Below, one piece after another: positions 45,904-45,935 of a DNA stretch of 64,000 bases. Below the pieces are notes generated by a model, which searched no databases, was not told the DNA's origin, and saw nothing but the letters and a program-made list of their open reading frames with translations. Made by a program: the position numbers and the translations under genes. The DNA is from Escherichia coli. GTDB taxonomy: Bacteria > Pseudomonadota > Gammaproteobacteria > Enterobacterales > Enterobacteriaceae. Position 1 is the first letter of the stretch, and each line of letters starts with the position of its first letter. The stretch is from the NCBI RefSeq assembly GCF_003334765.1, contig NZ_QOWT01000002.1; one strand, given 5' to 3'.

Positions 45904-45935
45904 TCGACCAGTCAGCAAATATGCTGACTGGTCGA
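45904..45935. terminator. perfect 13-bp-stem palindrome between convergent elaD and yfbK (probable bidirectional terminator)
   Basis: tcgaccagtcagc-aaatat-gctgactggtcga. Confidence 0.6.

Follow-up and report, generated by a model that had tools for sequence, protein, structure and literature searches.

The stem of a canonical intrinsic terminator must be adjoined by a U-tract, and stem-loops of other designs have been described at or near the 3' ends of transcripts. In E. coli, the steady-state ends of Rho-dependent transcripts were found to follow directly upon stable stem-loops that have no U-tract, which protect the RNA against PNPase and RNase II and have rut sites just downstream (Dar & Sorek 2018, PMC6061677). 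Another described class, the bidirectional terminators, consists of hairpin-encoding elements in short spacers separating convergent genes, which do not resemble intrinsic terminators (Ju et al. 2019; Wang et al., bioRxiv 10.1101/2022.10.23.513370). The extragenic palindromes of the REP/BIME family offer a further point of comparison, as REP325 has been reported to act both as a partial Rho-dependent terminator and as an mRNA stabiliser (bioRxiv 10.64898/2026.03.23.713779).

Here, we compare with these systems a perfect palindrome located between the convergent genes elaD and yfbK of E. coli K-12. Coordinates refer to the window, i.e., the whole 64-kb stretch of DNA that was analysed, in which the addition of 2,338,038 to a position gives the NC_000913.3 coordinate. 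The palindrome is real, non-random and unannotated, and every test run points to an element of an ordinary kind, namely a U-less 3' stem-loop between convergent genes.

Structure and setting of the palindrome

The sequence-only reading of this DNA had quoted tcgaccagtcagc-aaatat-gctgactggtcga at 45904-45935 as a perfect inverted repeat with a 13-bp stem. The quoted letters are present exactly as written and the symmetry is perfect, while the length of the stem was understated: a repeat finder lengthens the quoted arms by one A-T pair at either end of each, which gives two arms of 15 nt, 45903-45917 (TTCGACCAGTCAGCA) and 45922-45936 (TGCTGACTGGTCGAA), that are 100% complementary and separated by a 4-nt spacer, AATA. 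The same hairpin (45903-45936) is possible in elaD (plus-strand) and yfbK (minus-strand) transcripts. Eight of its 15 bp are G-C pairs, and its predicted RNA fold has a free energy of -26.4 kcal/mol on the plus strand and -27.3 kcal/mol on the minus strand, with a z score of about -11 relative to shuffled sequences at about -5 +/- 2 kcal/mol.

The same reading had called the repeat unusually long and exact, and the statistics of the window bear this out. It is the longest perfect hairpin in the 64 kb when loops of up to 12 nt are allowed, the runners-up having stems of 11 and 10 bp, and when the window was shuffled 60 times with its dinucleotide composition preserved, the longest stem measured 9 to 12 bp and never 13 bp or more. 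The two next-longest perfect hairpins of the window lie at 18685-18714 (11 bp) and 11863-11888 (10 bp).

The gene names and the convergent orientation originally assigned to the neighbours agree with the MG1655 RefSeq record, in which the order is rbn, elaD (b2269, plus strand), yfbK (b2270, minus strand) and yfbL, and in which the palindrome occupies 2,383,941-2,383,974. The low-GC coding sequence of elaD (44675-45886) specifies a deubiquitinase and that of yfbK (45957-47684) a vWA-domain protein. The palindrome sits in the middle of the 70 bp between the two stop codons, and the 3' untranslated regions of elaD and yfbK enter it 16 nt and 20 nt past their respective stops, which places it just outside a terminating ribosome on either transcript. 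The RefSeq record NC_000913.3 carries no repeat_region, regulatory or RNA feature at this position, and Rfam returned no match above noise, the hits being sub-threshold ones to eukaryotic snoRNAs.

Several smaller features surround the palindrome. A weak 8-bp A/U-rich hairpin, AGUUAACA ucau UGUUAAUU, overlaps the elaD stop on the plus strand (45881-45900) and ends 2 nt upstream of the palindrome. On the other side, three alternating CAGTCA / TGACTG hexamers with 10-nt spacing (45951-45976) form overlapping 6-bp mini-hairpins across the yfbK stop; the hexamer also occurs inside each palindrome arm (45909 and 45925), and 5 of its 38 window-wide copies, in alternating orientation, fall within 68 bp (45909-45976). 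Directly 3' of the hairpin on the plus strand lies a C-rich, G-poor stretch (45937-46036; 31 C and 17 G per 100 nt) that is untranslated on this strand, being antisense to yfbK. Judged by its composition, this stretch is a candidate Rho-loading (rut) region. The minus-strand flank of the palindrome has no such C-richness (12 C versus 17 G).

Transcription termination around the palindrome

The proposal that the palindrome is a bidirectional terminator fared unevenly. Its position between convergent genes and its equal stability on both strands agree with the proposal; against it stand the largely Rho-dependent termination of elaD-sense transcription in the region and the sequences that follow the stem, CAUAGUUUG on the plus strand and UUAAUUAAC on the minus strand, neither of which is a U-tract. 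The palindrome is therefore not a canonical intrinsic terminator on either strand, and a terminator consensus scan requiring 5 T in 8 positions did not flag it.

A Rho termination region has been reported on the plus strand at 2,383,800 (Adams et al. 2021, PMC7815308, supplementary file 2), which corresponds to window position 45762, inside elaD and 141 nt before the hairpin. The published reads upstream and downstream of this point, counted in 800-nt windows, are 165 and 21 in untreated cells and 264 and 122 in the presence of bicyclomycin (PMC7815308), and these counts reproduce the published Rho score of 3.6 (3.63; p = 6e-8); windows of this size cannot place termination relative to the hairpin, and they concern the plus strand only. 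At a resolution of about 800 nt, elaD sense transcripts in the region thus end largely by Rho. Under bicyclomycin, read-through into the downstream 800-nt window, which includes the hairpin, rose to 46% of the upstream signal. This exceeds the 22% of the downstream window that precedes the hairpin end, i.e., the share expected at equal coverage, which suggests that the hairpin alone would not be an efficient stop.

A second Rho region lies on the minus strand at 2,382,764 (window 44726), antisense to the start of elaD, with 274 and 21 reads upstream and downstream in untreated cells and 503 and 139 in the presence of bicyclomycin (PMC7815308). The substantial number of antisense elaD reads (274 per 800-nt window) implies either that the hairpin is no efficient block on the minus strand or that antisense transcription starts inside elaD; such transcription could stem from yfbK read-through past the palindrome or from promoters inside the AT-rich gene.

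Published maps of RNA 3' ends show none at the palindrome within the following scope. The curated Term-seq data of Adams et al. (2021), covering three growth conditions, list no 3' end for elaD or yfbK and none at 23838xx-23840xx, including none at or near 2,383,974 (plus strand) or 2,383,941 (minus strand); the accessible portion of the TRS table (PMC10687069) lists no end between the rbn end at 2,382,571-3 and 2,385,572; and the supplements of the SMRT-Cappable-seq study do not mention the palindrome. Since both genes are weakly expressed, we regard the missing mapped ends as a weak negative.

A local precedent for a U-tract-less hairpin marking a 3' end is found just past the rbn stop, where a hairpin with the arms ACAGGGC...GCCCTGT (44505-44527) has no U-tract on the plus strand. 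The published rbn 3' end lies 6 nt past this hairpin on the plus strand in the accessible part of the TRS table (PMC10687069), and a plus-strand Rho region lies 70 nt beyond that end (Adams et al. 2021, PMC7815308). On the minus strand, the same hairpin continues with a T-run, TTTTTAATAA, and, going by these letters, looks like a terminator facing out of the low-GC segment that contains elaD. A d'Aubenton-Carafa-type terminator score was negative even for the rbn hairpin with its mapped 3' end and was not relied on.

The reading that we favour, tentatively and somewhat short of calling it probable, is that the palindrome forms a 3'-end-defining, exonuclease-blocking stem-loop of Rho-terminated transcripts, and possibly also a site of polymerase pausing or collision. 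Under this reading, the two convergent mRNAs would each carry the palindrome in their 3' untranslated end, where it would fold into a very stable 15-bp stem-loop. A polymerase that has passed elaD would go on to read yfbK in antisense, over C-rich sequence that is not translated, and could be terminated there by Rho, and 3'-to-5' exonucleases would then trim the transcript to the foot of the hairpin, so that the steady-state 3' end would be both defined and protected by it. On the yfbK strand, where the stem is followed by UUAAUUAA, the hairpin may add weak termination or pausing, and with polymerases arriving from both sides it could also pause them in the manner of a collision-type bidirectional terminator. 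We infer, on this basis, both that transcripts end at the hairpin and that the hairpin stabilises them, and rather than a terminator, the palindrome is better called the 3' hairpin of a transcript that is ended by Rho or by collision.

The anatomy of the elaD strand, with a stable stem, no U-tract and a C-rich untranslated stretch over the next 100 nt, fits that of the stem-loops of Dar & Sorek, and the rbn hairpin, with its missing U-tract, its mapped 3' end and its Rho region, counts in favour of the same reading. Counted against it are the absence of mapped ends in the published maps, the lack of compensatory base pairs among the variants seen and a non-significant test of constraint (P = 0.42), the antisense reads inside elaD, as well as the coordinate of the Rho region, which falls inside elaD and upstream of the hairpin.

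The elaD islet and the distribution of the palindrome

The palindrome belongs to a low-GC islet that carries elaD (about 44488 to 45984; GC 0.28-0.40 versus about 0.5 outside), the right junction of which is about 45 bp away; the last eight or so codons of yfbK in K-12 also belong to the islet. Published surveys place elaD in about two thirds of strains, mainly of phylogroups A, B1, D and E (PMC12575377), and in our search with the ElaD protein the best 120 matches were all near-identical E. coli proteins. No direct repeats flank the islet or the palindrome. The islet junctions (44448-44471 and 45973-45996) form a 24-nt inverted repeat with 79% complementarity, which coincides with the similar C-terminal codons ELAN of rbn and ELAD of yfbK, and a similar pair is present in the elaD-less arrangement.

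Three arrangements of the locus were found in E. coli. In the first, represented by K-12, the order is rbn-elaD-palindrome-yfbK. The second, represented by O157:H7, is the same arrangement with yfbK and yfbL largely deleted, in which elaD is retained together with an intact palindrome and the last 40 nt of yfbK (strain F8092B, L002 4260-4620); the persistence of a perfect palindrome despite the loss of most of yfbK was counted in favour of the 3'-hairpin reading. Internal deletions that remove most of yfbK and part of yfbL occur in many strains besides O157:H7, and these strains retain the same three parts. In the third arrangement, seen in 915 genomes, rbn and yfbK are adjacent and elaD is missing, the islet being replaced by an unrelated 120-bp spacer and a different yfbK tail (L001 3854-3990), such that the C-terminus of YfbK reads ...LADGVTDISQ in K-12 and ...LAKDLDNSQN in the elaD-less form. 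A homology comparison of the K-12 and elaD-less spacers returned weak local matches only. The elaD-less spacer holds its own, different hairpin of about -21 kcal/mol, which makes a hairpin between the convergent genes a constant feature of the locus.

A search for other copies of the palindrome, as the sequence-only reading had proposed, found none. It has no second copy within the 64-kb window, and it is present in 4,200 of 5,426 complete E. coli genomes, at a single locus in each and always together with the low-GC islet that carries elaD; the copy count returns two places per genome, which are the two strands of one site. It is absent from the phage records and viral contigs searched and from the true plasmids of the plasmid collection, where the only matches are pieces of E. 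coli chromosome entered as plasmids. The 11+11-nt core, compared with 100,044 species-representative genomes (298 Gb), gave two matches, one in a hairpin of an Oscillospiraceae metagenome-assembled genome (MAG) and the other in a multi-copy REP-like element of a high-GC proteobacterial MAG. Both were rated as coincidence, as their flanks and loops are unrelated to those of the palindrome and hairpins are plentiful in 298 Gb. The REP-like element, from MAG BP5.bin5, has the form ACCAGTCAGCC-N4-GGCTGACTGGT, adjoins a conserved GCGCGTGGGG...GCGCA module and was located at L006 2470-2497, L007 1070-1097 and L008 5333-5360 and 5409-5436; its arms share 11 nt with the E. coli palindrome, probably by chance.

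Sequence variation and the possibility of a relic

Of the 4,201 E. coli records that carry the palindrome, 3,718 (88.5%) have the 34-mer in exactly its K-12 form, compared with 59% for the right and 48% for the left flank of equal length; this contrast reflects a small number of old flank polymorphisms. In 12 genomes taken as an unbiased spread sample, 35 sites segregated in 297 nt, and 3 of them fell in the palindrome (binomial P = 0.42); all three of its variants were singletons, and 17 of the 32 flank variants were shared. These contrasts are suggestive of constraint but are individually non-significant and fall short of demonstrating it.

The commonest variant, 45916 C>T, still allows G-U pairing in elaD sense transcripts (dG -24.4), and this preservation of pairing was counted for the 3'-hairpin reading. 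The other variants, 45911 G>A, 45909 C>A, 45915 G>T and 45931 G>A, are likewise one-sided, and no compensatory double substitution was found among the variants seen. In strain STEC17-183 (L015 121-154), a frameshifted elaD is accompanied by four substitutions in the palindrome, which bring the stem down to -11 kcal/mol; as a single case this is an anecdote, and the combination may be a coincidence.

These data also bear on the possibility that the palindrome has no selected function, which we consider rather unlikely. It would then be either a structural relic of the acquired elaD islet or the product of an in-place inverted duplication or template switch, and it would persist because too little time has elapsed or through quasi-palindrome correction. 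Several lines of evidence are consistent with such an origin: (i) the palindrome always travels with the low-GC islet and lies close to its right junction; (ii) the recurrence of the CAGTCA/TGACTG hexamer three more times within the next 50 bp suggests local duplication; (iii) segregating sites are no fewer in the palindrome than in its flanks, given that its share of 3 in 35 corresponds to 34 of the 297 nt, and every variant is uncompensated; and (iv) neither the data of Adams et al. (2021) nor the accessible portion of the TRS table places a 3' end at the palindrome. On the other hand, the perfect form is more frequent than the identical flanks and its three variants in the 12-genome sample are singletons, neither contrast being significant alone, and both the central position between the two stops and the unrelated hairpin at the equivalent spot of elaD-less genomes fit a functional requirement.

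Discussion

The notion that the palindrome works as a collision-type bidirectional terminator, in which the hairpin pauses polymerases and head-on and trailing collisions release them independently of Rho, appears improbable as the main explanation. It draws on the convergent gene pair, on the presence of the hairpin on both strands and on its dissimilarity to an intrinsic terminator, all of which correspond to the class as described (bioRxiv 10.1101/2022.10.23.513370). Three observations argue against it: (i) elaD-sense termination responds to bicyclomycin (Rho score 3.6, at low spatial resolution), whereas descriptions of the class have it as Rho-independent; (ii) both genes are poorly expressed, so that collisions would be rare; and (iii) O157:H7 keeps the palindrome although the convergent partner gene has been destroyed.

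A wider proposal, which taken as a whole we regard as quite improbable, is that the islet owns a pair of transcriptional insulators, with the terminator-like minus-strand hairpin at 44505-44527 on the left and the palindrome together with the CAGTCA mini-hairpins on the right. The right-hand module could then be more than a passive RNA cap, namely a bidirectional barrier of the collision or pause type or a protein-bound array, and this barrier or array could shield rbn and yfbK from a foreign effector gene that is kept silent, and the gene from them. Alternatively, within the same proposal, the right-hand module could be a scar of the islet insertion that rewrote the last eight codons of yfbK.

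The earlier suggestion of a protein-binding site found nothing in its favour among the reported binding data: the only binding reported nearby, an LldR gSELEX peak labelled elaD > yfbK, was rejected as a candidate, its motifs at 46944 and 47159 (46944-47175) lying inside yfbK, 1.0-1.2 kb from the palindrome. A site acting at the DNA level, be it an operator bound by a regulator dimer, a site of recombination or insertion, or what is left of the ends of a mobile element, is very unlikely, since the perfect dyad symmetry, the five CAGTCA/TGACTG hexamers in 68 bp, which can be read as an array of half-sites, and the nearby indel junction are set against an element that is single-copy in every genome and found in no phage or true plasmid searched, that has no flanking direct repeats and arms too close together for a MITE or IS, whose 34 bp of perfect symmetry exceed a usual operator and whose 15/15 complementarity goes beyond the need of a dimeric regulator, and that lies downstream of both genes with no promoter-like site nearby.

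Returning to the favoured reading, a 3' hairpin at which Rho-terminated transcripts are trimmed and protected, its confirmation would add a further example to the U-less 3' stem-loops that end Rho-terminated or convergently transcribed mRNAs, and one that accompanies elaD, an effector-like gene of horizontal origin about whose regulation little is understood. The palindrome opens no new question. Its perfect, single-copy stem, common to two transcripts, could make it a clean natural system in which to distinguish the protection of a 3' end by a hairpin from termination.

To conclude, the palindrome can be placed with respect to the known systems as follows. With intrinsic terminators it shares a stable, G+C-containing stem-loop downstream of a gene, but no U-tract adjoins its stem, which on the yfbK strand is followed only by UUAAUUAA. 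A MITE or IS remnant was considered and rejected, as the arms are 4 nt apart, direct repeats do not flank the element and it occurs in a single copy. Like REP/BIME elements, it is an extragenic palindrome of a 3' untranslated region that could attenuate read-through and stabilise the upstream mRNA; unlike them, it is single-copy, does not resemble the REP consensus, carries no repeat annotation in MG1655 and has a stem free of the mismatches of theirs. With the bidirectional terminators (Ju et al. 2019; Wang et al., bioRxiv 10.1101/2022.10.23.513370) it has in common that it encodes a hairpin in a short convergent spacer and is not intrinsic-like, whereas that class has been described as Rho-independent and the elaD side here shows Rho dependence, and the expression of both genes is low. 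Relative to the stem-loops of Dar & Sorek (PMC6061677), the palindrome has a stem that is longer than typical (15 perfect bp, about -26 kcal/mol) and common to two convergent transcripts, and their steady-state 3' ends at the foot of the stem contrast with the 3'-end tables covered here, which list no end at the palindrome. It nevertheless resembles these stem-loops in having a stable stem soon after the stop codon, no U-rich tail, a C-rich downstream sequence and a location in a bicyclomycin-sensitive region.
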